A stretch of DNA of 64,000 bases from Yuukianura sp. NJ FZ-2021 (lineage: Eukaryota), in contig CM102289.1 in the NCBI GenBank assembly GCA_046563655.1, forward strand, positions 7,936,001 to 8,000,000. Reading direction: 5' to 3'. The notes beneath the pieces were generated by a model. It was not told where the DNA came from. It did not search any database and saw nothing but the letters and a program-made list of their open reading frames with translations. Below, piece after piece: positions 9,178-63,981 of the stretch. How positions within the stretch are numbered: the stretch's first letter is position 1; each line of letters starts with the position of its first letter. The position numbers and the translations under genes are program-made.

Positions 9178-12100
9178 TCATTTCACTGCGTCGTCGGATG
9201 CTGTATTGATTTTTTCTAAATCGTCGCATGACTTGGATTTTGGAGATCTGCTACTGCAATACCAAAAAAAAATTATTACTAATTTGAAAAAGAATTCGAA
9301 ATTTTTTCCCAGTTTTTTGAAAAATTATACCTTGACTTCCTGGCTACAATTCGTCGAGTGACTGTGATAAGAACATCTCCATTTTTGATTTTCTTAAAGA
9401 CAGCTACAGCTTCTGCGTGTGACAATCCTTGAAGTGGAGATCCATTTACTGTCAAAATTTCATCACCTAGAAAAAATTGAACAAAAAAAAAGTTTAGCTG
9501 AAGTTCAAAATTCACTTTTTCAAAAACCATTTTTCAAAATTCCATTCAAGTCGCCACAGACTGCCACTTAAACCAAAATCCCAGTAGCTGCGACACTCAA
9601 CATTTTCTAGATTTTAATACCCACTTCAAAAATTTTGAAGTGATCCTTGTGCCAACCTACGCCGTTTCCACAGTTACGTCTGGAAGGATTTCCCTTGCGA
9701 AGGAAGGATAAGAGGAAATCATAAATAGAAGTGTCAATATTTTCTCTTTTGAAAGACGAAACCTAACCTAACTTTAAGCCTGCCAAAAAGCTTCTTCTTC
9801 TCCCCCATGCCAAGGAATGTCACGTCTCATCATTATTTGCCTCCTCGTTCCGCACGTGGAAATAATCTAATCCAAGAACTTTCTCCTCCTTTCACTTCCA
9901 TAGACAAAATTAGAGTAATTGTCAAGTCTAAAGAGAAAGTCACTACACAACTACTATGCTACGGTGTAGTCTCAAAACTAATTTCATCTGAATAAGATAT
10001 CTAATCCTGAAATCTAAATGTAAAATTTAGAAATTCAAGGAGCTAGAGCATCTCGAGAATTCTGAAAACTAGGTTCCATTCATCACTTACCGTAAAAATT
10101 CTCATACAAGCCCAGGTTTCTATTCATTTTCTAAGTAAATTTTGTGCTCTACCTCCGGCTTCTATTGAACTGGAGACTCGGTTTCTATTGTAAAGCGGCC
10201 TTATTGGAACTTTTACGGTAAAAACTTACTCTTGCTGCCTTATGAATTAAGTATAGCACTTTGTACTGCCATGGCGTTTCTCATTACATTAATAACCTAA
10301 CCTACGCAAAAGCTTCTAACATAACCTAGTTCCAATTTAAAGTTTTCCTTTTCCTTAGTTGGAAACTGGAAATTTACAATTTCACAACCAATTTTAGTCA
10401 CTGCAAATAATCATAAGGAAAAAACCAAATTTTAGAAATAGTAGTTTGCACATCCAATTCCAAAAATGTCAAAAATGGTGGTTTAGATTTTGAACTCTCG
10501 AAAATTTTAGTGTAATGTTTAGTTTGGTGGAAAATTTTCCAAAATGTGTTGCAGCGTCGTCGTTCAATTTTCATAAAATTTAACTTTTTCCACCATGCAT
10601 AACATAATTTTTAACATAACTTTTTTCTCAAAATGAAAGTAAAAATAAAATTTTACCTTCATAGAGAGATCCCATTTCGGCTGCTTGTCCATTCGGAAAA
10701 ATCGTTTTGACGAAAATGCCCATGTGACCTTTAGGTGAATCTCTGCCGCCTACAATTGAAAATCCAAGGCCTTTCTTTCCCGCTCCTTTTTCAAAGGCAA
10801 TGACATGTGACTTGTAAAAGTAAGAAGAAGAGGAAGATGTCGAAGATGAAGTTGAGCCAGAACTTCCAGAAGATGAATTACTTCCAGAAGAAGAAGTAGA
10901 AGATGACTTTGGTTTTCTTGGTAGAGTACAGAGATTAGTCGTAATGTAATTGTAATTAGGACTTCCATTATTTTCAAATTGAACTCTGGAAGAGGCTGGA
11001 GCGTGAAATCGATTTTGACTTTGGATTACAGCATCTGCATCGACATTGTAATACGTGAGTGTAGAATGGCGTCTGTTCCGTTTAGACGATCCAACAGTCG
11101 CAGTTCCGCTGGAAACCAAGTGACCTCCAGGCGTGACCCCACCGATATTTCCTGGATGCAGAAACTGATGATCAGAGCAAGCTTCTGGATGCTCAGTGAC
11201 GGGTGACGGATGTTCGCTACTTGCACTTCGACGGTAGATTACCGGAACTTTCTTCCTCAAAGAACTTCGGTCTCCGTCACAGTGATCTTCTCCTGGAGAA
11301 TTCTCCAGGAGGGGGAGACTGAAAGTAAATGACGGTGGAATTGAACTTTTCCGTTGTACATTTGTCTGTTTTTTCAAAAATGGTAAATCTAGGGTGTAGG
11401 GAGGCTGGTGATGATTGGAGGTCACAAAAGCGTCGTCTTCTTGGAACGTTTCGACTTCAGCGATTGTGTCATGTGAAATGGAGATACCGCGTGACCGAGG
11501 TTGCAATTGGTCTGACTTTTTAGTATTCATCGTCCAGTCTGGTCCTAACAAGTCACGTTCTTCCAGTCCACCAGTTCTTGTCCTATTGAGCACTGCGATG
11601 TAGTCAGCTTCTGATGGAGGGAGACTTGTAGGGTGACTACGCGGAAGTTGATTTGTCGTTGTTGTGGTTGAGTCGAAGTTGGTAAAAATTTCGTGCGTTC
11701 CGGCCCTGGCGATTAGTAAGTCCAATTGAGCACAATTAATTGCAGTAACTTGAAGCATTAGATTGACTTCGGTTGGACTCAGACCGCGCAGGCGCTTGCC
11801 GTTGACGTTCATCAGCACATCTCCAGTCTCCAGTCGCCCATCTCTGTAAAAAAAAAATAGATTGAAAAATAAGTTAGAAAAAATTGTCCAAAAAAGTAGA
11901 AAAATGATATCAAACTCTCGTTAGAAACTTCCGCCAGCCGCCATCTATATGCTGAGTACAATTTTCCAAAAGTAGTTCGCACGACTCCATATGCATTAAA
12001 TTCTCATAAAAATCAACTTAAAAAAGAACTTCTTCAGAACATGACTTTTTTTTAGAACATACTGCTGAAATACTCCGTAGTTCCTTAAATTTTTTCTTTT

Positions 12101-15100
12101 TTGAAATAACTGTCAAAAACTTTTTTAAAAGTCGTACAACTCCCGCTTCAGCAACGATCCGTGAGCATAAAATTCCAATTTGCATTGAATTGCGTAACCT
12201 CCGCATAAGTTTGCTTTACGGGTTCGTTTGACTCCCTAACTTTTCGTTCACTTTTGGTCGTAAATATTTCCTCATAAAAAATTCGCATATTGCAAAAAGT
12301 TTACTTTTGGCGTTCTGAGTCATAAAATTGGCAAAGTAGGGTTCGGGTGATGCTTATGTTTGCTTTTTTTGAAACAAGCTGCCGGCAATATGTTATTCAT
12401 AGTGACTCCTATGCGTAATGTAAATATTGCGCAATATGTAAACTTTCAAATAAAGTGACAAAAAGTTTGAGTAGTTTCAAAAGAATGATCAAACATATCT
12501 TTTTATAAGCCTTCCAGAAAAAGCCCAACTACATAAATCATGAATTTTCAACGACAAGGGCACGCACGACGGCAAAACTTGAATTTCAAAGAACGTGAAT
12601 CTCAAAGACGCGTGCTTTTAGTTGCGGACATTTCAAGCACGTCGAACCATGAAAACGTTTTCGTTTTTTATAATAGTGCGGTTGTTAAAAAATTTTGGAA
12701 AGTTTATTCAGTGTATCGTAAGAATTATGTATGTAGAATTATCGGCTGTTCTTTTTTTGTGTATTTTTCCATTTGATATAAAATAAAATTGTGGAATCGT
12801 TTGTTTGCTGACGAATTTTTTTTGGACACTGAAAAGCGGCAAAATTTCAACAAATAAAAAGTTGAGCAACGCAGAAGTTTGACAAGCGTCTGCAGGAGCG
12901 TCACTTTTTATGAAAATTTGAACATGACATGAAAAACTTGCCCGCTCTCCCGCTTTCTCTTGTCCACTTTCTCCTACATCCTTGAATGTATTATTCAAAA
13001 ACCGGTTTTTCATATTTTAGTTTACATTTTTTGTTACCTTTGAGCTGGAGATCCACTTGCAACTGCTTGTACAACGTGTTCCAAAATCCCCTTGTCATCC
13101 AACTGACTCTGAATAGAAATTCCAAGGGACTCGTCCAAGGCCTTCCGAATATGGAACAAGTGAAATCGTCTTTTGGAGGACATGACTTGTGGTGGTGGGG
13201 TTGGTGGTGGCTCAAGGTGGCTCACTTGGCTTGAATCTTGCCCCGCCGCCAATAGTGACGGTGGTGACTCAGTCAGAAATGGAGATGGACTTGTGTCAGA
13301 CTTTGTACAGATTCTGAAAATCTCACGACTTTCGAGACATGGGATTCTATTTTTTCCCAAGACTGAGATGGGTCTGGCATAAATTGGTCTAGTACTCAAA
13401 TTACTATCAGTTTCAGTAGTTTCCTTTGGAGTCATCATGACACCAATGTTAGGGTGAGGGGACATAAAGTTAGTTTTTGGTGACACGATATCACTCTTGC
13501 GTCTTACTAGAGCCGTTTTGGACTTGTTCACTTGAAAACTAGTTTCAAAAGACAGGATTCGAGCTCCAACGCCATTTCCTGACCCCTCATCATCCCACTG
13601 TTCTGACTTCATTTTGACTTCATCTAACAAAACTTCAACACTTTTTGGTTTTTTCATATTCAAAGAACCAAGGCTCTGGTCGTCTAGATTTTTTAAACTG
13701 TCAGAGTCATATCCCGATTCATTAGATGAAATGTAACTGGATCCTGCCGTTTGCAGAGGGTTCAAGGGTAGGGGGCCCTTCGTCACCAGTTGATTCTGGA
13801 AAGAGGGTCTCTCCATCCTGTCAAGCATTTCACAACTGCTGCTAGCACTTTTGACTGTTCTGGGATTTCGACTAGATTCTACCCGGATTCGGGCATTACG
13901 GTCTCCCCCTCCTGCATTTCCCGGGAGATTTGAACTGATTTTCATACCTGAAGTATCACTAGCAGTTGTGGGGTAGCTGGCTCTCGAACTGGGACTGTTG
14001 CTTCGAGCTCTTTTGTTTCTTTTCACAACCAAAACTTGACTGTTCTCAGTAGCCTCGGAAGTACTTCTTGAGAAACTTGGAGGTAGATCCAGTCCGTCGC
14101 TACTTTGAGAACTGACGAGAGTCGTAATGGAACTGAGTCCTTTTGAGGGTAGTTGTTGTGATTGTGCTTCCTCAGGCAATACACAAAGTTTTGAACGGAT
14201 GAAGCCATGAGGAAAACCGAATTTTTTAGTCGATGGGGTGCAGGGAGTCGAAAAACCTTCGACGTCACTTCCTCCGCCGATGGTCGACACGAGGTTATCA
14301 AGGCTCTGGGCCTTCTTGGACGAAGGGGGCCCTTGGGGAGGGCCCTTATTGTTAGTATAGTTAGGATTAGTCATAGCATTATGCACTTGTTCCTGTCCCA
14401 CGCTAGTCTCAAAGGCTATAGTATGGGAATCATTTGTCATCGTGAGGCCATTAGTCATAGACTGACCACCGGGCCTCTTAGGAGAAACCGCAGAGTCCAA
14501 ATCTGTGGCTGGGTCATCTCCGGCCACGTAAGACGGCAGAGTTGACGTGGAACAGCTTCTAAAAAGTGGTGAACTCTTGACACCGTGGCGGTTGAAGTAC
14601 GGATGCTGCGACTGCGCAGAGTTTTGGTCACGCTTGGACACTCTAGCGGGACTTTTGGAACGACTGGAAGGTCGAAGCGTTCTGAACAAAATTTTTTCTT
14701 TGATTGACTCTACTCGATTGACTGCAGAAGACAAGCTTTGACCGTGGTGACCCACCGTGGGTTTCATCGTGGCACTTTTCCGGACACAGTGACCTTTGAA
14801 GTTAAGGTAAAACTCGTCTTGGGAAATGCTTGACATGCGCTGTGGAGTTCCTAATGTACAGGAACCAACAGGAGTTCTACTGCGACTGCGACATTTGTCT
14901 CCAAGGTTCTCCTCAGAAGCAAATGGTTTTCTATAGATTTGTGAATTTTTGACCTTTTGACCCTGAAAATGACCTTGAAACGAGTCGCGGTCACGCGTGG
15001 CTGCTCCTGAAGATGGTTTTTGCCTAAGGTCATCATCTGGCGTGACGAAGCCTTGTTTCGGTGGTTCTTCTGAGTAACTGCGATAATCATCTGTACTTTT

Positions 15101-18100
15101 GCTGGTTGTTAAGGAAAAACGCCATTGACGTTGCAAAGTTTTCGAATTTGAAGATTTTGAACTGACGGGAGACGGAATTTCGGAAAAATCCGAACTACAA
15201 CGAATGTCACTTCCATGCTTGAAATGGTTCCAAGTTTTGCCCATTTTCTTGCTCCAAGTTGCAAAACCTATAAAAAAGTAAAAAAAAAAACTAAAATAAC
15301 AAATTCCGCGTCAAAAAGTTTAAAAAGATTTTAATTACGAAATTTTTGTGGTCCAAATTTTTTAAACAGCAGTGCAAGTCCGAAACTGGAAAATGTTCAG
15401 CCCAAGCTTTTCTTTTCGTCAATTTTTTTTTGTAACTGGCATTTTTTTCCCAAATTTTTTTTTCTGCTTGGCGTGTCTAATTACTATTCCAAAAGGGTAA
15501 AAAATGAAAACGGAAAAAGGCTCAGCTTATTAATTTTTTGTTCTAAAAACTTTTTTGTCTCGTACAGCTTCCATTTTTGAATTTTTGAACAGCCGCTTTT
15601 TTAAAATTGCAACGAAGAGTGGAATTTCTTATTCAGCAAGACAACAACAACATAGGCTTAAGCATTAGCCCTCCTCCTGTGCCTGAATCCGCAAACAAGA
15701 TTAAGTTGTCTCATTTGCAATTTTCCTTGTCAGTGACTCCTTCACTTTGGCGTTTCATTTAAAGTCAAGGGCTCTTCTGGGAACATTCGTTACTTCACTG
15801 CTCCGAGCGAACATTCTGCGCCGACATCTTATCTCTGTGCAAAAAGTTGAAGAAAGTTCTATCTTTAGATCTTCTTGTTCCCATATGTCATGACGAAAAT
15901 TCCTAAGGACTTAGGCATAACATTAGTTCCACTTTGTCGTCACGAACAAAAATTCCCGCTAAAGGAAACCTTAAACCTAACACTTTTAGGTTCAAACAAA
16001 AACCCGGGAAGATTTGTGTTCAAAAGATTCTTCAATTTCAAACAACGAGACAGCTTAAGATCAGTTCAAATGATACTTTGAACAAAGGAATGAAAATAAC
16101 AATGGAAGGAAGATTCGAACCCATGACACATCTATCATTAGATTCAATCATCCATGATCTCCCAAACAGAACAATAAACAGATATGGGAAAATGGTCACC
16201 GTTTTTTTGTTCGTATTGTTAAAAAGTTTGTTTGATAATTTTGAAATTTTGAATTTGAAAAAAATGGAACCTAAAGAAAGTCATGGTTCGAATCTTAAGG
16301 GCGCGGCGGCTCTTTTTGTCTGAAAAGCGTGACGATAAGTCTAGCACGGCTTTTTCCCAAGGAATCGACCGCAGACTAAACAACAAAAAAATTCCATGAT
16401 TTTGCTTTCTAAAAAAAATGCAAAAATTTTTTTTTTGAAAACAAAATTATGGATCGGTGCTGTTTTTTTCTTTCAAATTCAGGCGGTAGCGCTCATCGCT
16501 GATATTGATCAGGACTAGAAAAGACGAGCTCAATAACAAGGAGTATTTAGGAAACAATGGAGCGCGTGCCGTATGAATTTCGGCCTGACTAGTTTGAATA
16601 CCGTGCCATATAATTTGAATTTCCCTCCAAAGATCAGAATCAGTTAGGACTCATCTGCGCACGATCATGCTTAAACATGCAAACGTCGTTTGCCAAATCA
16701 ACCGACAAGAACAATGGAATAATGCTAAAAAACGGAAACAGTTTTGAATTTTTTACTTTTTAAAAAAAAATTTGGTGGGGAATTTTCTGGTATGAACTGA
16801 TGATTTGAACAGATCAAGTTTTTTTTTGCTAAAAAATGCTATGTTGATTACTATTGCCGTCAAAACTGTCATGAAATTAAAGTTTTATGGTGCACGGGTT
16901 GTAAAACGTGTTTCAAAAATTCAAAATTGCAGTTTTTCAAAAAGAAATAAAATGCATGCGATTTCCAAAAATTTCCCATTTTGTTCTTGTTGCTAACCGG
17001 GTTCCTTTGAAGACTATGCGTCACACCAACAATTTTTAGAACTTTGTTTTTTTAACTTTGAGGTATCTTGAAATACGTGAATAGATATCCGTTGTTTTTC
17101 AAAAGTGAGTCATTTCCGTTTATTGGCTCCAAAAATAAAACAGGATGAATTTATGATTCAAAATATTTTGGTTGTTCAAGGAAGTGGCAAGTTGCGTACA
17201 CAAAACAATGACGACAAACTGTGGTGAGTGGTGAATAATACAACTCTGGATGTTGTGAGCTTAAAAGCTGAACTAAATTTTTGAAAAAAGGAAAGGAAAA
17301 AAAATTAGAAAACTTTTAGTTGATGGAATTGATGGAATGGTAAGAATTGTATTCCGTTGTTATCAGAAAATCCAAAAATAATAAAAACTTTCCCGAATTC
17401 TTTTCTTTTGTTTTGTCCGCTTTTTCTGCGTAACTTTCTCCCCCAATTTTCATTTTAGCTTTGGCTCAGAATTTATGGTGTGCCACCAAAGCCAAAAGTT
17501 CCTACGCCCATATCCCTCGTTATGAAGCAGAACTTTATCTACTACGAAATGACAAAAGACCGAAACCAAATTAAAACGCTCAAGAAAGTTTTTCATTCCT
17601 TTAATATGAAAAGAAATTCATCTCTTTTTACTTTCAAAACAAACCATTAAAATTTTCCAAATTTATTAACCTTCATTTTCTAATGATCGGATGCAAAAGT
17701 TTCAAATTTAATAGCTTTCCTGAACTTTCTCTTCCAATTTTTATTTTAATAGATTTCACATTGGCATATAACTGTTTTAAATAATAAAAAAAAAGCGCGT
17801 TAAAACTCATAATTTTTGTTTTCTTACAACGGCAAAAAACTTGTTACGAAAAATTCAAAAGTTTTCAAAATTCCATATTTCAAAACAATAGTTTTTGACG
17901 AAAATTATTTGAAAAGTGTTGCAATTAACTGTTTTGTGAATACCAGGAAAAGTTATTTTTCAATAGCAAGGAAATGAACGAGGCCTTGAACGTTTTAATT
18001 AAAAGTTTTACCGCCAAAACTTTTTGGTTTTCAATTAAATGTTTCTGAAAAAGGCCGTTTAAATTGCAACTTTGAACTTTCGTGCTGCCTTTAATGTGTG

Positions 18101-39324: not shown

Positions 39325-42300
39325 TCAAGCATCAATAAGATTGTCACATGACTGTGACTTGAGAGTGCGGTCCTTGGATTTCTTGGTGCGGCGACTCACA
39401 GTGACAACGACGCTGCCAACTTTTACTTTTTTGAATAACGTCAAAGCCTCAAGGTGTGTCAGACCATCCACCGGAGTTCCATTAATGGCCAAAACTTCAT
39501 CTCCTGTAAAAAGAAAAAAAGTAAATAAAACAACTATTTTACAATTTAACACCAGAAAAAGTCAAGTACATCAAAGAAAGTGAAGACAATGGAGTCACTT
39601 TCACCCGAAAGTGAAACTGAATCAGGAAAGCAATTTCGACCCTTGTCGCTACTTTTTAGACAAAAGTATCTCAATTATTTTGTTTTCTTTAAAAAAAGAA
39701 GTCTTCCATGTTAGGGCACCTTCAGAGAAAGTAGAAACTTTCTCTGTTACTTTTTACAAAGGAAAAGCTAGCTGACCAAAATATTGATCCAGAAAACCTT
39801 TGGTGAAAACCCTATGTCAAATAACTATTATTTATAGTTTCAGCGGGAAAACACCGGTTGGTAGTAATGTGGTCCAGCGCCCACGGAACAGCATAGAATT
39901 CCAAAAGAGAAAGTTTCAAAAACAGGCTGAAATGGGAACCGCAATGCCATTATTTTACTGATCTCTGACTTCCTGCAACTTCTTTGATTCCAAAACCCAA
40001 AGTAATCCAAAACTTTGTTTAAAAAAAACTTTTCAAAAAAAACTTTCAGCATAATGCTATATGCACCGTATATAGTATGCTGCACTATTTTCTGATCCTA
40101 CTTTTGTTCAAAGTTGAGTGACCTTTTCAAAAATTGTGGTCGTAAATGTAATAGCCACCGAATTTAGTTTTACCTGTTACGCTTCCAGACAGAAGTCTGG
40201 AGCCCAAATCTTGTCTGAATCCAAACTTCAGAAAACTAAGAAAAGTTTTATTGATTTAAGAGCATTTTAGGTTTGTATTGATTTTGGAGCCAGAAGCCTT
40301 AACCTGTCACTACCTCACAATCCTCCGAACAGTAATTACTAACCTAAGGTGACAGGTTAGCAGGTAACAAAAAAAAAGTTAGGCTAGGTTTGTGACCTGT
40401 CGTCGCCAAAGAACCTAAAAAAACTTGAAGTGGATTTCTCACCTTCGTGGAGCCGTCCATCATCCAGGGCTTGGCCATTAGGCAGAATACTTTTGACGAA
40501 GATGCCCATGTCCCCTTTGGGTGAATCCTTTCCTCCGACGACTGTAAATCCCAAGGGCTTCTTTCCTGGGCCCTTTTCATAAACTATCGTCATAGAAGTA
40601 ACTAGAGAGGACTTGGGTCTGCGCGGAAGTGTACAGAAAGAAGGTGAATCGTCTTTTTCAACTCTACTGACAGTAGCTTCTGTAGCTGGTGAGTCCAGGG
40701 CTAGGAAGGCCGTTGATGAACTAGATTCCATGAGCAGATGAGGTCTGTGATGAGAATGAGGTCGATGATGACCACTGTGGTCACCAAAGTGAGGTCGACT
40801 AGAACTGGATGAAGGGCGGTCAAGCAGGTCAGCTCGACTGAGTTCCTCGGTGGACATTTTGGCAAAAGCGATTTTCTTCCTTGGCCGAGCTTTGATTGTA
40901 CTGCTGAGGTCATCTTCGTAGCCTCCAGAACCAACAGGTCCATCATCGTTGTATGAAATCTTGATGATCGTTTTATTTGTAGCATCCTGAACGATTGAGG
41001 ATGATGAGGATGCTGAGGATGAAGATCTAATTGAGCCTGATCCGGTTGATCTTGGTCCAGAAGGAGGCCTGAGCACGACCAAATCCATGTCCCGCTTGAG
41101 CACTGATTTCAACTGCGAAGCAACTTCGACTGGAGACAATCCACGAACGAACTTTCCATTGATGCTGATGATTTCATCTCCAAGTTGAAGCTCTCCTTGA
41201 CTGCAAACCAAAAAAGTCAAAGTTAGATAAACTTAGGTTATGCCTAAAAATAACTAAGGTTAGGGTAAACAAATTCTCAAAATTTTGATTTCTCAGAATT
41301 TTGATTTGTTTGCAGAGTTATAAAGAGATAGAATAAGTAAATGGTTAGGTTAGGTGACGTCTCCAACGATAAGTGCATTTTGTACTTAGAAAGCCCAACC
41401 TTCTAGAAAAAGACTTTCTACTTTTGAAAATGGGCATGACAGTTCACGTGGAAAAGATTCAGTAGTTGACCCGTTAAGTTTCAAAAGTGAAGGTAAACTG
41501 GCAATATAGAGCACAAGGGATTGTAATAAATTGTAACAACTTTTCTTATGCTTTTTGAACAATGGGTTTTACAAATAATAAAATTTTATTAACTTTGAAA
41601 AACTGAATGTCGCAGGAGTAGAAAGCACAAGGCAACTGAGTGCTTCTGACGCAAATTTCTAAGAATTGAGACAATTCGTTCCAGAGAAAGTCGTTTTTGC
41701 TTTTCCCTGGAAAATGTCAAATGTCAATAAACATGAATTTGAAATTGGCATTGTCAGGAGTCATTTTCCTGGAAAAGGTAAATATTGAAATGGTCCTTGA
41801 TACAAATAAAAAGTTGTTCAAATAATTCAACTTTTAGAAAACAAGGCAATGCTAAAAAGAAAAAGTAAACAAGAGCTTGTGCATTAGTTTGTGCCCTTTA
41901 TGCCTTCAAGGAATAGAAACTTTTCGTTTTTGAAAAGATGGAAACTTTTAACTTTTAAAAAATTGGAAACTGCTTTTGTTAAATTCAAAGTTTGAGGGAA
42001 ACTATTGTGTGAAGAAGTGACTGGAAATGGGATTGTCGCCTTTTGCTATCGAGTAACTTTTCCATTTAGGTGACACAGAATTGCATTTAAAAAAAGTTAA
42101 GTTTGAAAATCGTATTATATCCTACCCCGATTATCTTCAAAACGGAACAAACTTTTTTTGAAAAAAACACGAACAAAAAGTTTCAGTTACTTTGGAACCT
42201 CTTAAGAGACTTTCAAAGCGTCAGCAAAAATGTTCTGCTTTCACTTTGAAACGAAAGTGAAAATTTTGAAAATTTGTTAACCTTCAACATTTTTGAACAG

Positions 42301-45300
42301 TTAAGCTTAACGTTTCCCCACAAAAAACTTCTATCTCGCATATGAAAATTTGTGGATTTTTCTTTTTCTTTTTCACCGCTAAAGAAGCGCATCTTTTTTT
42401 TAAGTACGGGTAATTGTAAACCAATTAATTTTTTCTGAAGAATTTAAAAATGAACCTGAAAATTGTTGGATTTTGAATGCTTTACATATGTTGGTTGAGA
42501 AAACTGTTCATGAAGGAATGTGGGTCGTGTATTTTTATTATATCGTTTGAGTGTTGCATTGCCTTGTTCTAGATTTGAAAACGGTGCTGGGATCTTTTTC
42601 AAATTTTTTTTTTCGAATCTTGGCTACTCGCATTCCTTCATGATTTCTTAAAGCTACACTTATTCCTCTAATCACATTGTTCATCAACCCTCAAAATTTT
42701 TTAAAAATTGTTTACAAATATTTCTGAGGACTAAAAAATTTCCAAAATTTTTGATTCCGAAAATCTCACCTTGCAATTGGCGATTCTGGATGAATAGTTT
42801 TGACAACATAGCCACACGCTGAAGCTTCATCTAAATTCTTATCCAGCGTTACTCCCAGCTCCAGCGTCGATGAAGTGCTAACCTCCAGCGCAGTTCCACC
42901 AAAAAAGCTCTTGGATTTTAAAAATGGGTGTTGAAATGGCGCCACTTTTCGAATTCGTACTAACTTATACTCTCCATGAGCATTTGAAGTTGGAGCTGCC
43001 GATAAAGTGTTACTAAAATTCTTGGATCTGACTGGTGTATTTGGACGTACGAGGGCCTTTGACCCACCGCGCCATGAGTTCCACCTTTCGGTGGGGCCGC
43101 TGCTGCCACCATGGTGGCTCGCTTCTGAATCTTGAAACAGGGAGCTGCTATCCAAAGTTTCGTTGACTATTCCACTGTCTCCGTCAGAATTATTACTAGC
43201 CGAACCTGATCCACTACCAAGTCGGTGGTCAAAGTCATCCAAGGTCACTCCAACGATGTCCACGGGGGTACTTGTACATAGGGGGCCCTCAGATTCGTAC
43301 AAAGGATTTGCTCTGAGGTCAAAGGTCGTCTCACCTTCTTCATCATCATCAAACATAACATTGTTAGGTTGAGACGGAATTTCACCAAAACTTAAGCTCC
43401 TCATCTTTCTCAAACTTGAATCCACCTCATCTTCGGAACAACCTTCATCTTGCTTTCTTTGTTGTTGTGAGGCCTCGTTTTTGTAAAATCTTGAAAAAAT
43501 TTTAAGCTTTGATTTCGGAGTTGGATGAGAGGCAGACGAGTTTTTGTTGTTATTGGAAAAGCATTTGTCTGAAACTTCTTTGAGCTTCAATTTGAGTTGT
43601 TCATAGGAAGATTCTTTGGAAGAAGACGATGCAGAGGAGCCTTTTGGAAGTGGAGGAAGACCAAACACTTTTCGTTCCCGTTCTGACTCAAGGGACAGGG
43701 TACTTGGTCTGGAAATCCTTTTCATGCAAGGACTACTTCCACTGATCATGGAATGATTCAAAGAATATTCTGAACCCGTCTCTGATCGAACAGACTCTCG
43801 TCGGTCTGACATGGAGTAATTGTTAGTGTTGACCTTCTTGTACCCCTTAGGAATTGGTTGAAATTCGTTAAGTCCGTTGCTACTCCAACCAATACCGGAA
43901 CTTCCATTTGATTGACGACCATATTTTTCATCCAAGCCAAGCAGGTCAAAGGGGTCAGACGGCATCGACAGCGTCCGTTCACTTCGAAACCGATTTCTTG
44001 AAATCTTTGAAGCTTCGTCAGCTTTAGTTGAACATGGTTGTGGTGGAGGTTGGACTTGAGGCAGAGGAGTTCTTCTTGGTGATTGGCCATAAGAAGAATA
44101 CGTATAAGCCCCGGAGTTTGTTAGGTTAAGGGACGGGGGTACTTCGGTGGATTCTGGCACAGGGTCGGTGGGTACTGGCGGGGGTGACCAGGGACGAATT
44201 CTGCCGGCATAGGACATGTGACCTTGAGGTTGACGATACTTGTGATTTGACGGAACAGTGAATTGGTGATTGTAGGCGGAAGAGGATGACGAGAGGTAGT
44301 CGTCACGGTTGTCATCAAGTCGACTACTCCGCTGCTGTGACTGTTCTTCTTCAATTGAATCTTGGCGCAGTTTTCTTCTCAACCATGGCGAAATGCCTTT
44401 TCAAAAAAAAAACAAGAAAAAACATTAATCACACAAATCGAGCTCAGCGAACAAAGAAAATAGATTTTTGGAGCACAAATTTGGGCAATGGAGCAATTTA
44501 ATTTTCCGAAAAAGTTTGGGACAAAAAAGTTTTTTTCTTCGAGATGGTCATGACCGTTTCAAAACCAAAGTTATAAACCCAAAATTTTGTGCAGCAAAAC
44601 ATATGGACTCGAAATTACAACAAAAACAGAGCCTTTTTTAACATTTTTGTAAAAACTTCCGAAAAAAAATTACGAGTTCTCACAAAATTGGATTTACTTC
44701 TGAATTTTGTTTTTGGAAGAATTGCAAAATTTTGAAAATTGTCAGCGCCATTGTTAAATTAACTTTCACTTTTTTTGCTAATTAAGTTAATGAATTATTA
44801 ATTACCAGTATTTTTCTGAATGAACATGAAAGCTGAATCATGAAATTAAAATTTTTTAATATTTCAAAAATTACTTTGCATTTTCCTTTCACTTGAGTTT
44901 CAAAATTGCATAAAAATGTGAAAGTAAAAACAATGAGTTACAACTAAAGTATAAACACAAAGAAAAATAAAATGACAATGGACAAATTATTTAAAATTAG
45001 GACCCAAGGAAAGACAAATTAACTTTTTTGGAATTTGACATATATGAGCATAAGGTGTGGACAACTCAAGGGAATTTCAAATTATGAAAAAATTACTCAT
45101 TTTTGAAAAATTGCTCTCGCAGACGCGCCTTTAATTTCACTTTCTACAAGAAATCTTCCGAGCCATTGTACTTGAGCCGAAACTTTGCAAAAATTTTGAG
45201 CGTCGCATCATTCACAAAATTTAACATCAAAAATTTTCGTGAATGATGATGAGCGATGAATCACAGTATTTTTGTGTCCTTTTCTACAGGAAATGGAATC

Positions 45301-57434: not shown

Positions 57435-59877
57435 TAACAAAGAATTCAGGATGTGACTTTTGGACAGGGCTGTAACCACCGCCGGGTAAAAACGGTCTAC
57501 TTGTTTCAACTTTGCAAATTTATTCCAAAAACCAAAACCAAATTCAAATTTTTCCACTCTTAGCCATTTTGGCAAACCTCGTAAAAACTGAAGCATGGCT
57601 TTTGAGGGGGAGGGGGATGACTCTTTTCAGTTTTAGCATTTGTAGTTTTTTGTACTTCTAAAAACTTTGTTAGTACAAACATAAACTCCAAAAATAGTGT
57701 TTTGCGCATCATCTCTAAAATTCTGTGCAAAAGTGTGTCCTTTGAACACATGATGCGAAAGATGACAATGAAAATGATGATTGCCATTCCATTTCAATTC
57801 AAGGTTTCCGTGTTTGAGGTTGTAAAAAAACACTTTTCCCAGAAGTCATACCTGAAGTGTAGTACAAAGTAAGTAGTGCAAGAATCTCTGCTTTTTAATT
57901 AAAAAAAAAGCCTCCCCTGACCATCTCATCTTCATTTTGTTCAAAAACAAGATTTATAAAACATAAAAAGTTTTCAAAAGATCAACCACTGCGTTGTTGT
58001 TTCCTAAACGAACCTAAATTGTTACAAAGACAATGAAATCGAGAGACAATGTTGAAAACAATTTGGCAAATGAGGATCAAAACAATGAAATAGTTTTGGT
58101 AATTGCAAGATGCTGCTGCGCCCTCTGTGACAAAAATTTCAAGAACGCTTTAAGGAGTGACCAAACAAAAGATGACATCGATACATAAATATAACCTACA
58201 AAAAATTTTAGTACTGTGCAAAGCGTGTTTTGTAAAATGTAGAAAAAAAGTAAATTTTTGATGACATGTTGAATTACAGTGGAAAAGTACGTCTGACTGT
58301 TCTTTTCATTGTTACTACTTCGTTTCGTTTTCAAAAGAATAAAAGTAAGTCTCTTCAATTTCAAAATGTAACCAAACTAGTTTTAGTGGAATGTTGGCGT
58401 CGGTGTTGTTTTTCTGTACACTGATCCTATGACCAATTCCTTCCTTTACTACTTAAAAGTAATTCAAAACAAAGACCAGCTTTTAAATAATTACCCTGAA
58501 ACTGAAATATGAACTACGAAATACTTGGGAATTACGAACTACTTAAATATTTCAGACCACAGTTGCAACAGAATCAGATAACAAAAATAAGAGGATTCAA
58601 CAGATACTTATTATTCAACGCGTCACTTTGGCCTCAGACGTAGCGTGTTACCGAAGTACAATGATCGGGTTCATGTGGCTCACGGCGGCAAACGGTTCAA
58701 AATGTTTGCGAACACAGTTCAAAATTACTGTCTGTGCAATGTACATGTGTCTGTTTCTATGTACTGCCTGCTTCTGCGCATGCGGTTGATGAATAGTGTT
58801 AAAAACTTCCGTGTTGGCTTTTTTTTCGCAGATGACGAATTCAACTTTTATAGAATTTTTTCTTTAGTAACTCGGATGCAAAAGTGCGTGTTTAGTGCAG
58901 GATGCGTGCACAATTTTTTCATAGGAAATTGGATTTCAATAATTTGAGTTCAATTATTGTAAAAACTGGGGCTAACAATTATTGATATGTATTGATTTGG
59001 ATTTGGCTTAAACACATTGTTTTCCACCAATATTACAAATGTCAGCAACACACCAACACACGATTGAATTTTTTAACCAAAATTCCTGATTTTTAAAACT
59101 ATTTCAAATTTTCCGTAAAAATTGTGAAGTTCTAAACGTAAAACTTACTTGTTTTAGTGAATGGTGTTTCCACAGATTCGAAATTGTCCAAAATTTGGAA
59201 AAACGGAGATGACTATGTTCTTTTGAGTTCTGTGAGGATAATGATGGCCTTCACTGATGATTCAGCTTAGTTACCATAACTAGTACGTAATTTGCGGTTA
59301 ATTGCAGTACGGAATCGGCAACAGTTAGGAAATTAAAGCTGCAAATTGATGACTTCTCCGCAGCAACTTTTCCAAAAAGCACAAACGGTTTGCGCAAACA
59401 ATTCAACCAAAATGGCAAACTTGTTGCAAAAAGTTGTGGTTTTCGAACAAACTAAAATTACACTTTTGACCTTTTGCACCAAAAGTTGAATTTGAAATCC
59501 TTGATCAAATTATGCAGTTATGTTTCAAGTATTTTTTGATGTTTTTCTGTAGCTGGATTCCCTTGCCTCACTTACTTAAAGGCCGCCTAGCTTCTCACTG
59601 CGGCCAGGGTTCCCAGATTCAGTCACTGGACATTTCAGTCGTCCGCCCGAAAGCGGCTTTTGGACGTTTCGGTCCAACCCCTTTCAGTCGACCGAAATGA
59701 CCGAAACGTATTTCCACCAAAATTGGGCGCGAAACTATTTGAATTTGAGGGTACAGAATTAGAAAATTAGTCAGGAAAATAGTAAATTAGTAGAAACTGG
59801 TCAAAACAACTGTACAAAGCACTTATTTTGAGTTTCAGGATAATTCTGACCTCAATCAAAGGTGAAGGGAGCAGTGG

Positions 59878-59923
59878 ACTTGGTTTGTCAGTGCCTGAGA
59901 AATCAGTGTCAGCGCAGCCAAGT
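59878..59923 (+). ncRNA. Putative structured RNA/ssDNA motif, copy 1
   Basis: ACTTGGTT-TGTCAGTGC-CTGA(GAAA)TCAG-TGTCAGCGC-AGCCAAGT. Confidence 0.5.
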
Positions 59924-60202
59924 TAATTATTTTCCTAAAATTGGGAGAGTTGTAGTTACAGAATTGAAATTATAAAGACCCTCCAGTGTTTTTCAATTCA
60001 GCAGTGACATAATTATTAAGTACTACATCTTCATGTCGTCTTCAGTTTGTGTAAACTCAGGGTAGTGTCAAGTGCCATAGCAGTACTTTAATCGGGCGGA
60101 AAGGAAGAGTAGGATATATATCGTTTAGCTTTAATTTTGAACAACTTCCGGTAACTTACTTATCCTAGTTTCACGATAATCCTGACCTCAATCAAGGGTT
60201 GA

Positions 60203-60271
60203 CGGAACAGTGGACTTGCCTTGTCAGTGCCTGAGAAATCAGTGTCAGCGCGGGCAAGTACTTCTGTTCCG
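60203..60271 (+). ncRNA. Putative structured RNA/ssDNA motif, copy 2
   Basis: CGGAACAG..ACTTGCCT-TGTCAGTGC-CTGA(GAAA)TCAG-TGTCAGCGC-GGGCAAGT..CTGTTCCG; compensatory stem changes relative to copy 1. Confidence 0.5.
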
Positions 60272-60523
60272 AAAATTGGGGAGAGTAGGAGTTTATAGCT
60301 TAAATTACAAAGACTCGTGTACTTCTCAATTAGCCAGTGACATATTTATTAGTGAATCGTCATTGTCATTGTTGCTATCAATCGGTGCAGGCAGGGATTT
60401 GTAGATTGTAATCAAACCAGTGCTTGTTTCAACCAAGGATCAGACGAAGTGACAAAGAAGGGTTACGTTTTGTAATGTTTATGTTCGTTTTTTATTTTCA
60501 ATAAATACAAATTTCCTTTATTG

Positions 60524-60582
60524 CCTTACCCAAATGGCGCTGACATTGTCCAGTGACAAGCACTGACACATTTGGGTTAAGG
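60524..60582 (-). ncRNA. Putative structured RNA/ssDNA motif, copy 3 (opposite strand)
   Basis: The minus strand reads CCTTAACCCAAATG-TGTCAGTGC-TTGTC(ACTG)GACAA-TGTCAGCGC-CATTTGGGTAAGG: the same two 9-mers with largely different but fully paired stems. Confidence 0.5.
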
Positions 60583-61857
60583 TCAGGTCAGGCGGCAATT
60601 GTAAGAGATACTTCAACTATGATCAGTTCACTTAAGAGTATTTTTTACAAAAAAGAATAAAGTGATGTTTACTTTGCTTTTGTGTTTGATCTGTTTAAGG
60701 AATGGAAGTAGGAATTGATGATATGAACCTTATTTTAAGTGTAGTTGGCAGTAAACCAACTAATCGAATTAATTTCCAAATTAATTCGAGTTTTTGACTA
60801 AATTAGGTATTGGAAATTGAAACAGCTGAGCATGTAAACAAGAAAAATAGAACCAAAAAGAAAGTTTGGATTTGAAATTTTCGAGTTTCGCGCCCCGCGC
60901 ATGCGCAAAGCGCATTGTGACTTTTGGTCGGACATTTCGGTCGTTTCAGTCATTTTGGACATTTAAGACCAAAATTTCAAAAAGTGACCGAAACTGGGAA
61001 CACTGACTGCGGCATTTCCAAAAAATCAGGAATCCTAGGCTTCAGGAAGGTGACTCATAAAGTGAATTGCACACAAAGTGGAAGATGTCTATTGTCTTTT
61101 CCAAGTCGTCCTGGTACACCTTGCCCTCCCTCGCCTCTGACGGCGTCCAATTTGCAGATGACCATCACGTCACACCAAGATGACAAACTTGACCGCTCCC
61201 TGTGTATGGCGCTCTTGCGTCTATGTTAACGTCACCAATTTGCGACAATTCGCACTCACTTTTATTTTGAGGTCACTTGTTCATTCACAAAAAAAATTGG
61301 GACCAACTTTGGTTCTCCAAATATTTGCTCAGTTTCGCCAAAAACGTTATCAAGCAAGTAATAATCAGTGCAAAATAGGAAATGAGGTCATGTCAACACT
61401 GTTTGACGGGAAGTTTTGAATTGTGTCCTGGATTGGATCCAGCATTTTTGTAGGTTTTGTTATGATGTTACGCAACATTTGCGTCCTTCTGAATTTAAAA
61501 TTTCGAAAAGCAGGTGTAGTTGGGCGAAATTTTTCGAACAAAAGATTTAAAAAAAATTTTTTTTTAGACTGATGAGGGTTGAATTAATCGATACGCAACT
61601 TGTCAGTTTTTACATGAATTGTTTTGTATCGTTGCAAAGTTAAAAAAAATGGAAGTTGTGAGCTGTACACCTTTGCATGTTTTTGTGTTAGCGTTTATAT
61701 GAAAGCTCGTGAGGGTGACAGGTGGTTTAAATTGGCATTGTGAGTCATCCTGTACATTTCAACTTTAATGGTGTTCAGAAGTTAGCTAAATTTCAACTAA
61801 CTTCAAATTCATCATGACGATTATTATAATAGCGAAGCTATTATGATAAAAGTGGTT

Positions 61858-61902
61858 TGTCTGTCTGTCTGTCTGTCCGTCTGTCTGTCCGTCTGTCTGT
61901 CC
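61858..61902. repeat. (TGTC/CGTC)n tetranucleotide microsatellite
   Basis: tgtctgtctgtctgtctgtccgtctgtctgtccgtctgtctgtcc. Confidence 0.95.
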
Positions 61903-62301: not shown

Positions 62302-62672
62302 GTGTCCACCGGGTGTCACCTGTCACTTGCCGGGTGTCACCTGTCACCTGTTAATTGCCGGGTGTCACCTGTCACATACCGCATGTCACCTATCACTTGC
62401 CGGATACCGGGTGTCACCTGTCACTTGCCGGGTGTCACCTGTCACGTGCCGCGTGTCACCTGTCACACTCACGTGTCACTTGCCGCGTGTCACCTGTCAC
62501 CCTCACGTGTCACTTGCCGCGTGTCACCTGTCACCCTCACGTGACACTTGGCGCGTGTCACCTGTCACACTCACGTGTCACCTGTCACCCTCACGTGTCA
62601 CTTGCCGGGTGTCACCTGTCACGTCTCACCTGTCACCTGTCACGCCTCAGCTGTCACGTCTCACATGTCAAC
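62302..62672. repeat. TGTCAC-based minisatellite (7-bp subunits, ~21-bp unit GGGTGTCACCTGTCACTTGCC)
   Basis: Dozens of TGTCAC cores with variable higher-order units; central repeat of the Helentron-like element. Confidence 0.95.
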
Positions 62673-62969: not shown

Positions 62970-63981
62970 TTAATAATAACCACCGTAGTTACTGTAAGTT
63001 GGCCCAGCGTAACCGTAGCCACGCCCCTTCCCAGCTCCTCCAATGGCTCCACGTCGATAAAGTCCGCCACCGTATCCACCACCATAACCACCATGACCAC
63101 CACCGTAACCGCCATGACCACCGCCATAGCCACCATGACCACCACCAAACGGTTTTCCGTGGCCGTGGCCACCGTGGCCACCGTAACGTTGCGCATGTCC
63201 GTACTGTGGTCTCCATCCTTGCTGTCTCCAGCCACCGCCATGTCCATGGTTTCCGTGGTGGCTACCGTGTCCGTGCCCTTGATTTCGCTTAAAATGGTTT
63301 CCAAGTTTCCCACAGGCTCCGCTTACGTAATGCTCATGTTCAAGTCCTGGTCCTGGAGGGGCACCTAGACCGTGAAAAATCAAAAATTTGAACTGAATTT
63401 CAAAATTTCGATTATTTTTTTTGAAACTTACCGAAAGTTCCCGAGTGGCAACCTTTGTGGTCCCGGTAGTACCACCATCCGCCTTGACCCCAGCCACCAT
63501 AGCCTTTCTTTTTGCCGCGACCTTGTCTAGTGTAAGTGACATAGAGTTGTACTGGCTTAGCCTTTACTTGATACTCTTCATCTTCGTAACTCGACACAGC
63601 ATCAGCATAGTTGTCGTAACCTTGGATACTGGCGTGGGAACTCGGGTAAACTGGCACAGGATGATGGAGATCTTCGTAGTTTCTATGTGAATACTGTCCA
63701 TCAGTGACTACCGCAAGAACGCCAATCAACAGCACAGAACCCTAAGATGAAATTTCGAAAACACAATTTTTAAAAACTTTATTCAAAATATGTTTAAAAA
63801 AAACAAGTGTAGTTGGGTAAAATTTCAATTTGGTTGAAGAATTTGGCAAAGGTCATTGACCTCTTCGTTTTCCCTACGGCGAGTAACGCGTTTTATGTGT
63901 TGGCCGTAAATTTTTTACTAAAAAATTTTGGAATTGCTAATTTTATAGGTTTGAACTTGAACTTACCAGAAATACTTGCAT
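62970..63981 (-). CDS. Secreted Gly/His/Tyr-rich protein (cuticular-protein-like or Gly-rich antimicrobial precursor), ~239 aa
   Basis: Exons 63981-63967 (MQVFL|gtaagt), 63741-63432 and 63364-62970 join in frame (720 nt). Signal peptide MQVFLGSVLLIGVLAVVTDG, an acidic segment, basic RQGRGKKK, two Cys, then GHGHG and (GGYGGGH)n repeats. Confidence 0.85.
63850..63862. promoter_or_regulatory. Perfect IR1 palindrome (EcRE-type) in the intron after the ATG exon of the Gly/His-rich gene
   Basis: AGGTCA-T-TGACCT. Confidence 0.55.

Follow-up and report, generated by a model that had tools for sequence, protein, structure and literature searches.

Three hairpins with an invariant internal loop and covarying stems, a candidate folded element of a hAT-like transposon in Yuukianura sp. 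NJ FZ-2021

We analysed a 64,000-nucleotide stretch of the Yuukianura sp. NJ FZ-2021 genome (GenBank assembly GCA_046563655.1, contig CM102289.1, forward-strand positions 7,936,001 to 8,000,000), henceforth the window, with positions counted from its first letter. The window contains a 1401-bp non-coding element (59605-61005) that carries three hairpins, two on the plus strand and one on the minus strand, in which an invariant internal-loop sequence is held between stems that differ among the copies and stay paired (Table 1). The element is a transposon, because it has inverted ends, a target-site duplication and a contig that represents the empty site. Its terminal repeats start CAGGGTTCCCAG... 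and CAGTGTTCCCAG... and fit the form YARNG, and in the empty-site contig 59596 is joined to 61006 and 8 letters are shared. The hAT pattern consists of an 8-bp target duplication and ends of the form YARNG. Both are found here, and the host is a hAT-like non-autonomous DNA transposon. No stop-free frame longer than 76 amino acids lies mostly inside it. The subterminal regions (59628-59706 and 60928-60953) contain inverted motifs of the GACCGAAA/TTTCGGTC and TTTCAGTC types, which are distinct from the hairpin loop sequences; these subterminal repeats are probably ordinary transposase-binding repeats. Two more palindromes occur inside the element, an AT-rich 19-nt pair (60757-60796) and a GC-rich one centred on GCGCATGCGC (60890-60913).

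All three hairpins have the same order: outer stem, the 9-mer TGTCAGTGC, an inner hairpin, the 9-mer TGTCAGCGC, and the closing arm of the outer stem. The core outer stems comprise 8 bp. The inner stems comprise 4 or 5 bp closing a 4-nt loop and read CTGA-GAAA-TCAG in copies 1 and 2 and TTGTC-ACTG-GACAA in copy 3. The start of TGTCAGTGC is separated from that of TGTCAGCGC by 21 bp in copies 1 and 2 and by 23 bp in copy 3. The common form of the 9-mers, TGTCAGYGC, matches seven times in the window against an expectation of 0.45, and none of 100 shuffles reached seven. Six of these matches make up three ordered pairs (plus strand: 59886/59907 and 60222/60243; minus strand: 60560/60537), and the seventh lies alone at 44740. 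Copies 1 and 2 point inward from the left end of the element and copy 3 points inward from the right end, so that a strand read inward from either end meets a sense copy. A sequence-only reading of this DNA had placed the hairpins at 59878-59923 (+), 60203-60271 (+) and 60524-60582 (-) and had named their outer stems and inner hairpins; all of these can be read in the sequence, the last span including the pairing CCTTA/TAAGG beyond the 8-bp core at 60529-60576.

Table 1. Coordinates of the transposon features, in window positions. R1 is the covariance model of the hairpin.
Feature	Positions	Strand	Basis
Left copy of the 8-bp target-site duplication, ACTGCGGC	59597..59604	.	Same 8 letters at 61006-61013
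Left terminal inverted repeat, CAGGGTTCCCAGATTCAGTCAC, 22 nt	59605..59626	+	Degenerate pattern matches both ends only in the window; 0 expected by chance
Left subterminal repeat, CGACCGAAATGACCGA	59689..59704	.	Inverted partner at 60928-60943; 16 nt, 94% complementary
Unit 1: conserved leader, hairpin 1, second hairpin, CAGTGACA tail	59831..60018	+	~81% identical to unit 2 within the conserved part
Hairpin copy 1 with outermost G-U-rich extension (GGGAG/UUCCU, 5 pairs)	59867..59936	+	Consensus fold of units 1 and 2
Hairpin copy 1, core: outer stem ACTTGGTT/AGCCAAGT; TGTCAGTGC 59886-59894; inner hairpin CTGAGAAATCAG 59895-59906; TGTCAGCGC 59907-59915	59878..59923	+	90.2 bits to R1 (trained on copy 1)
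Second hairpin of unit 1, AATTGGGAGA ... TTTTTCAATT	59939..59998	+	10 pairs, several G-U
Conserved CAGTGACA of unit 1, minus-strand reading TGTCACTG	60002..60009	+	Repeat comparison of units
Unit 2 of the tandem pair	60167..60350	+	Edges 60167 and 60350 double as breakpoints in shorter family members
Hairpin copy 2: outer stem ACTTGCCT/GGGCAAGT, core 60214-60259; 9-mers 60222-60230 and 60243-60251; further perfect 8-bp stem CGGAACAG/CTGTTCCG (60203-60210 with 60264-60271)	60203..60271	+	-34.7 kcal/mol, z-score -3.75; 88.4 bits to R1 (training copy)
Second hairpin of unit 2, AATTGGGGAG ... CTTCTCAATT	60274..60331	+	10 pairs; kept in centroid of the 841-nt fold
Conserved CAGTGACA of unit 2	60335..60342	+	Repeat comparison of units
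Hairpin copy 3: outer stem CCCAAATG/CATTTGGG, core 60529-60576, extension CCTTA/TAAGG with one bulge; TGTCAGTGC 60560-60568; inner hairpin TTGTCACTGGACAA 60546-60559; TGTCAGCGC 60537-60545	60524..60582	-	-24.8 kcal/mol, z-score -2.98; 78.5 bits to R1 (training copy)
Right terminal inverted repeat, CAGTGTTCCCAGTTTCGGTCAC, 22 nt	60984..61005	-	Same degenerate pattern
Right copy of the target-site duplication, ACTGCGGC	61006..61013	.	Sequence reading; empty-site joint

We assessed the pairing of the stems in an alignment of the three copies. Standard pairs fill 33 of the 33 cells of the 11 stem pairs, and 8 of the 11 pairs are changed on both sides, counts that rest in effect on two lineages because copies 1 and 2 are close tandem paralogues, and that use the same three sequences from which the stem structure was drawn. 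None of 500 column shuffles reached the observed pairing or covariation score. When the 3' partner was slid by 1-3 columns, pairing fell to 21-48%. Between copies 1 and 2, one outer-stem pair is swapped from G-C to C-G, and nearly every stem position of copy 3 differs from copies 1 and 2. At each of the 18 loop positions the three copies have the same base. The data therefore agree with the sequence-only reading, which had described identical 9-mers within stems that change yet remain paired. If copy 3 shares ancestry with copies 1 and 2, the divergence of the stems beside untouched 9-mers suggests selection on both the loop sequence and the pairing. A duplex binding site needs no stems, and the upkeep of the stems would thus argue for a fold.

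As a chance control, we searched public viral contigs and metagenomes for the two 9-mers at similar spacing. This yielded 30 matches in viral contigs and at least 122 in at least 120 metagenome loci. Among the matches listed, 0 of 152 had both ≥4 outer-stem pairs and ≥3 inner-stem pairs, whereas the copies in the window have 8-9 and 4-5, respectively. The best outer stem among the matches listed had 4 pairs in viral contigs and 6 in metagenomes, and the best inner stem had 6 and 4. A stricter pattern that included inner-stem bases gave no match in prokaryotic genome contigs, and the terminal-repeat pattern gave none in viral contigs. When the covariance model R1 was searched against the window with filters off, it recovered the three copies used for training and no others; the hit ranked next scored 13.2 bits (E-value 0.18). 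The motif is confirmed as real and above chance: an invariant loop sequence within covarying stems, present on both strands of the transposon.

Hairpins 1 and 2 belong to two tandem units spaced 336 nt from start to start, and the spacer that follows the conserved part of each unit aligns poorly. Both units contain a second hairpin of 10 pairs and the conserved CAGTGACA, as had been proposed from the sequence. In the consensus fold, the second hairpin shows one double-sided change between the two units.

We compared the element with contigs from six public DNA runs that share part of the stretch, none of which is recorded as RNA. Run X6 represents a second organism (organism B) from a separate study, and runs X1 and X2 may be the source sample of the window. 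Both X1 and X6 contain the empty-site contig, which marks the insertion as polymorphic or recent; the conservation of the hairpins would therefore reflect the transposon lineage and not a host gene. Summed contig depth, which does not equal copy number, is maximal on the terminal 100 bp, and inside the element it peaks on the bins that contain hairpins. Depth on hairpin 2 versus its neighbouring bins is 3183 versus 540 and 719 in X1, 871 versus 294 and 293 in X2, and 18.6 versus 9.2 and 6.4 in X6. For hairpin 3, the corresponding values are 2157 versus 375 and 828, 1211 versus 340 and 173, and 19.4 versus 5.0 and 3.8. The peak on hairpin 1 is weak (915 versus 654 and 292 in X1). Deletion joints 59747->60167 and 60257->60509 were found in X1, X2 and X6, and further joints were 59780->60167, 60350->60524, 60593->60980, 60577->60822, 59728->60210 and 59746/59747->60207. 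Position 60524 is a homology boundary, marked by the joint 60350->60524 and by a loose end before 60524. Shorter family members, including those of the second organism, retain hairpins 2 and 3 and lack the intervening DNA; some of them also lack the conserved leader of unit 2. The contigs contain 177 base differences beyond those listed, and the identity of the 9-mers is stated here for the three copies in the window. In a soil-metagenome run (X5), two 151-nt contigs match 60421-60571 and 60637-60783 with 1 and 4 other letters at depth 2, and soil is a probable habitat of the organism or of a close relative.

Predicted folding energies differ between the strands. Folded as RNA, each of the three copies is more stable on the sense strand than on the complementary one (-14.5 versus -10.8, -16.8 versus -13.1 and -16.6 versus -15.3 kcal/mol for copies 1, 2 and 3). 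With DNA parameters the values are -6.9 versus -4.7, -8.1 versus -6.8 and -10.0 versus -10.1, and only copies 1 and 2 fold better on the sense strand. The G-U pairs, found in the outer stems of hairpins 1 and 2 and in the second hairpin, lean toward a plus-strand fold, the direction that the sequence-only reading had drawn from the G-U pairs of copies 1 and 2. Together with the strand asymmetry, these pairs make RNA appear somewhat favoured over single-stranded DNA. When 841 nt of the plus strand were folded, hairpin 2 and its partner hairpin were kept in both the minimum free energy and the centroid structures, and hairpin 1 was kept in the centroid.

We also computed nearest-neighbour RNA energies for alternative registers of the internal loop, given here in the order copy 1, 2 and 3. 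An open 9x9 loop is predicted at -11.6, -14.0 and -13.3 kcal/mol. The symmetric register proposed earlier, with a U bulge, G-C and U-G pairs and a 4x4 loop, is predicted at -14.5, -16.2 and -16.2 kcal/mol. A staggered register, in which GUGC is paired to GCGC and two 5-nt UGUCA bulges lie on opposite strands, reaches -14.2, -16.6 and -15.9 kcal/mol, and a register resembling the twister-sister ribozyme reaches -12.7, -14.4 and -14.9 kcal/mol. By these predictions, the symmetric and staggered registers are nearly isoenergetic and both near two-fold symmetric, and the energies favour neither. The symmetric loop with a bulged U and tandem A-G/G-A that had been suggested is therefore one of two best registers and not the sole one, the staggered GUGC:GCGC helix with UGUCA bulges being nearly equal in predicted energy.

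Our tentative interpretation, which we regard as possible and not as established, is that the hairpins form a folded single-strand element (RNA or single-stranded DNA) that the transposon family retains and whose near-symmetric loop binds a factor. The three hairpins would be copies of a cis-acting element of a non-autonomous hAT-like family that works not as plain duplex but in a folded, single-stranded form, either RNA or DNA made single-stranded. The variable outer and inner stems would hold two UGUCAGYGC copies opposite one another, and the loop would approach two-fold symmetry because the same sequence stands on both of its strands. In one possible fold, G-C and U-G pairs surround a 4x4 CAGY loop with a bulged U; in the other, two UGUCA bulges are staggered about a GYGC:GCGC mini-helix. 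Such a geometry would suit a dimeric binding protein that is specific for both sequence and shape. The fold in vivo, the protein reader, the benefit to the transposon and the identity as RNA or DNA are what we infer from the patterns described above.

To our knowledge, animal cut-and-paste transposons are recognised only through duplex terminal and subterminal repeats, we know of no functional nucleic-acid fold in eukaryotic cut-and-paste transposons, and the folded signals of which we are aware come from retroelements, bacterial integrons and IS200/IS605 elements. If the interpretation is true, the hairpins would be the first sign that an animal cut-and-paste element depends on a folded signal, RNA or single-stranded DNA, as well, and the catalogue of RNA motifs would gain a compact, symmetric one with a protein-binding or catalytic role. 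Integron attC sites and the subterminal hairpins of IS200/IS605 elements offer an analogy for how a single-stranded DNA version might work. In these systems conserved sequences lie in imperfect hairpins whose stems vary and stay paired, and the enzyme reads unpaired bases. The likeness lies in variable paired stems that hold a short conserved sequence. The differences are that those systems are bacterial, use tyrosine or HUH enzymes and place the hairpins at the element ends, whereas the motif here lies 270-670 bp inside and has an unrelated sequence; we also know of no folded DNA sites in the eukaryotic hAT-type cut-and-paste superfamily. For an RNA version, the excerpts seen of work on the long interspersed nuclear element (LINE) UnaL2 and its short interspersed nuclear element (SINE) partner describe a 3' tail hairpin, a stem with an internal loop common to mobile elements that is needed in cis and read as folded RNA (PMC1636434). 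That hairpin belongs to a retrotransposon RNA read by a reverse transcriptase (PMC1636434), whereas the host here is a DNA transposon without an RNA intermediate. In the titles and abstracts seen on hAT stem-loops, MITEs (miniature inverted-repeat transposable elements), satellites and abortive gap repair, we found no conserved-loop, covarying-stem hairpin in a hAT element and only analogies. Text matches to the 9-mer strings appear, as judged from their list entries, to be primer-like or unrelated sequence.

Several points weigh against a folded, factor-bound element. The covariation comes from three copies, two of them tandem paralogues, so that by sequence comparison two lineages carry it, and pairing was counted on the very sequences that defined the structure. 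Three of the loop registers are predicted to lie within about 2 kcal/mol, and nearest-neighbour energies pick no single loop conformation. The element is known here from DNA sequence, from which its transcription or single-strandedness can only be presumed. The arms of the inner hairpins themselves resemble the 9-mers (TCAGTG in copies 1 and 2, TGTCACTG in copy 3). A variant lineage (3 records in X1 and 1 in X6) leaves the window sequence behind 60255, within the 3' arm of the hairpin 2 outer stem, and that stem may not always be kept. The depth peaks are sums over contigs rather than copy numbers, and two of the runs may be the window's own sample. Breakpoints at hairpin edges could arise by fold-back of the nascent strand during gap repair, with no function involved. 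By analogy, the mirror orientation of the hairpins to both ends would match that of terminal and subterminal protein sites in cut-and-paste transposons.

This last point leads to the explanation that best survives as an alternative, which we consider somewhat unlikely: the 9-mers are double-stranded DNA sites for a transposase, accessory or host factor that reads TGTCA(G/C)YG, and the stems are incidental. The element (1.4 kb) has 9 matches to the broader form TGTCA[GC][TC]G and the other 62.6 kb of the window have 11, an enrichment of ~35-fold that looks like an array of duplex sites, with three per module (two sense TGTCAGYG and one TGTCACTG). As direct repeats, the 9-mers are spaced by 21 or 23 bp, close to two turns of the helix. 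The left copies are inverted relative to the right copy, like the terminal repeats, and the CAGTG or CAGCG within the 9-mers has the same form as the element tips CAGGG and CAGTG. Retention in deletion derivatives would suit any site required in cis. However, this explanation does not account for the perfect outer and inner pairing in three divergent copies, nor for the finding that none of the 152 chance pairs listed combines the two stems. The obvious subterminal repeats are a different motif, of the GACCGAAA type, and the stand-alone 9-mer is not above chance in the window (one lone match against 0.45 expected). A precedent for mirrored inner sites is the inverted-repeat/direct-repeat (IR/DR) organisation of Tc1/mariner elements such as Sleeping Beauty, which, in the parts of the source seen, likewise has extra inner sites in mirror orientation that are kept by non-autonomous copies (PMC5224488). 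Those sites are duplex, related to the outer sites and lacking a hairpin (PMC5224488), whereas the 9-mers here are unlike the terminal and subterminal repeats and sit within covarying stems. If the 9-mers were ordinary duplex sites, the result would be a routine description of a new hAT MITE family.

It is unlikely, though still worth weighing, that the hairpins are a functionless palindromic module, a neutral or selfish passenger derived from an old inverted duplication or nested mini-palindrome and spread within amplifying deletion derivatives, with fold-back aborting gap repair at its edges. At least five joints fall at or a few bases from hairpin edges (59747->60207, 60257->60509, 60350->60524, 60577->60822 and 60593->60980), as such abortion would predict, and the lack of coding capacity and the recent insertion fit a passenger. 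MITEs bearing tandem repeats are also common in invertebrates, according to the portion of the source seen (PMC3879986). The element DTC84 of the clam Donax is an example: like the element here, it is a non-autonomous inverted-repeat element with a short internal tandem array, which here has two units and a 336-bp period (PMC3879986). The repeats of such MITEs are satellite-like, and the abstract describes no covarying-stem hairpin with an invariant loop (PMC3879986). Neutral decay would not spare 18 of 18 loop positions while the stems of copy 3 differ almost throughout. Mutation that perfects palindromes should yield complementary 9-mers, yet the 9-mers are direct repeats, and gene conversion limited to two 9-base tracts seems implausible.

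We searched for known structured RNAs. Rfam 15, whose families include twister ribozymes, small nuclear RNAs and Y RNA, gave no match at gathering score in the whole window. At E-values up to 10, the region 59500-61100 gave five weak microRNA (miRNA) or REN-SRE hits (13.8-18.3 bits), none on the hairpins. The hairpins thus belong to no family recognised in Rfam, as the sequence-only reading had supposed. In the same region, the twister-sister, hammerhead, hairpin, pistol, hatchet and hepatitis delta virus (HDV)-like ribozymes gave no hit at E-values up to 10. A hammerhead retrozyme or satellite repeat was rejected: the 336-nt tandem of two units is present, but no hammerhead hit was obtained at this threshold. 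A miRNA precursor or MITE-derived hairpin RNA was rejected too, as the stem is broken by the 9x9 internal region and the weak miRNA-model hits fall on the subterminal repeats instead. ARAGORN found no transfer RNA (tRNA) gene in 59400-61200, which disfavours a tRNA or tRNA-derived SINE. Matches to consensus sites for THAP, MEIS or nuclear-receptor recognition were partial and not common to all copies, and recognition by such a protein was set aside.

A more speculative proposal, which we consider improbable, is that the hairpins are a functional fold of a eukaryotic cut-and-paste transposon, either as a new minimal lantern-shaped ribozyme that cuts tandem transcripts or as paired loops that join the element halves. 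For the second version, in one read-through strand the left hairpins' two 9-mers complement exactly the two other-strand 9-mers of the right hairpin (60537-60545 and 60560-60568). Left-to-right pairing of the open loops (2 x 9 bp) could then bring the two halves of the element close to each other, while the differing stems would prevent a plain long duplex.

Taken by itself, a new small self-cleaving ribozyme or a far relative of the lantern ribozymes appears very unlikely. By analogy, the internal loop would be its catalytic core with a scissile C-A step, and tandem transcripts would be cut to 336-nt monomers in the manner of retrozymes and satellite hammerheads. In the excerpts seen of the source, the lantern ribozymes (LINE-1-rbz as well as OR4K15-rbz) have two covarying stems and a conserved 6+5-nt loop (G7 C8 U9 C10 A11 A12 / G36 C37 U38 A39 G40), cleave at C10-A11, dispense with the apical loop and mostly retain <0.2 relative activity upon single loop mutation (PMC11620745). 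The hairpins here share the succession of stem, conserved internal loop, stem and dispensable apical loop, carriage by a mobile element (LINE-1 in the published case) and a C-A step in the loop (PMC11620745). One register aligns 5' U-G-U-C-A-G with G7-C8-U9-C10-A11-A12 and 3' G-C-G-C with G36-C37-(U38)-A39-G40 (PMC11620745); U, C, A, G and C are kept in it, as is the A.C contact, along with one Watson-Crick pair in swapped form. Units 1 and 2 are also in tandem. However, the loops here are 9+9 nt and near-identical on both strands rather than 6+5, and in the best register, judged by eye, 5 of the 11 loop residues match: G7 is replaced by U, A12 and A39 are also replaced, and U38 has no counterpart, in a loop where most published single mutants fall below 0.2 relative activity (PMC11620745). 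The twister-sister-like register is predicted to be 1.3-2.2 kcal/mol worse than the best register of each copy, no Rfam ribozyme was hit, and copy 3 lies outside the tandem context. Judged from sequence, the hairpins are not members of the twister-sister-like lantern class and resemble it in shape only.

It is just as improbable that the transposon carries units 1 and 2 as small RNA genes, of a spliced-leader, small nuclear RNA, H/ACA or SINE type: a conserved unit of ~190-210 nt with two hairpins and a poorly aligned spacer, a GT after the conserved leader (AAAG-GTGAAG and AAGG-GTTGAC), an A/U-rich single-stranded stretch between the hairpins and an ACA in the tail would suit such genes, but neither an Rfam match nor a tRNA-like gene was found, copy 3 has the hairpin but lacks the remainder of the unit, and some members keep the hairpin alone (joints 59728->60210 and 59747->60207). 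The canonical Sm site is A U4-6 G and the H/ACA hinge box is ANANNA. The inter-hairpin stretch AAAAUUGGG, present in both units, has two U only and is not a canonical Sm site, which counts against a spliced-leader or other Sm-class RNA, and no ANANNA hinge box was found by eye, which counts against an H/ACA RNA.

Other features of the window lie outside the element. Its predicted proteins give a weak lineage signal toward arthropods: the best named protein cluster (score 0.94) is 88% Eukaryota and most often Arthropoda, with 8 members of known phylum. To the right of the element, ~0.85-1.3 kb away, are an array of (TGTC)x11 at 61858-61902 and a TGTCACC-type array. The latter spans 62309-62670 with a period of 7 and 37.7 copies, and also shows periods of 21, 34, 49 and 54; TGTCAC is common to the array and the hairpin modules. 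At 62970-63563 on the minus strand, a glycine/histidine/tyrosine-rich open frame without a Pfam match contains GGHGGYGGG repeats and a 21-nt tandem repeat (63076-63147). Two similar sets of gene pieces lie on the minus strand at 10628-15310 and 40384-44400. Each combines a long serine-rich frame that lacks a Pfam match with a PDZ-domain exon (PF00595, E-values 1.3e-09 and 4.8e-14), and the two look like tandem paralogues.

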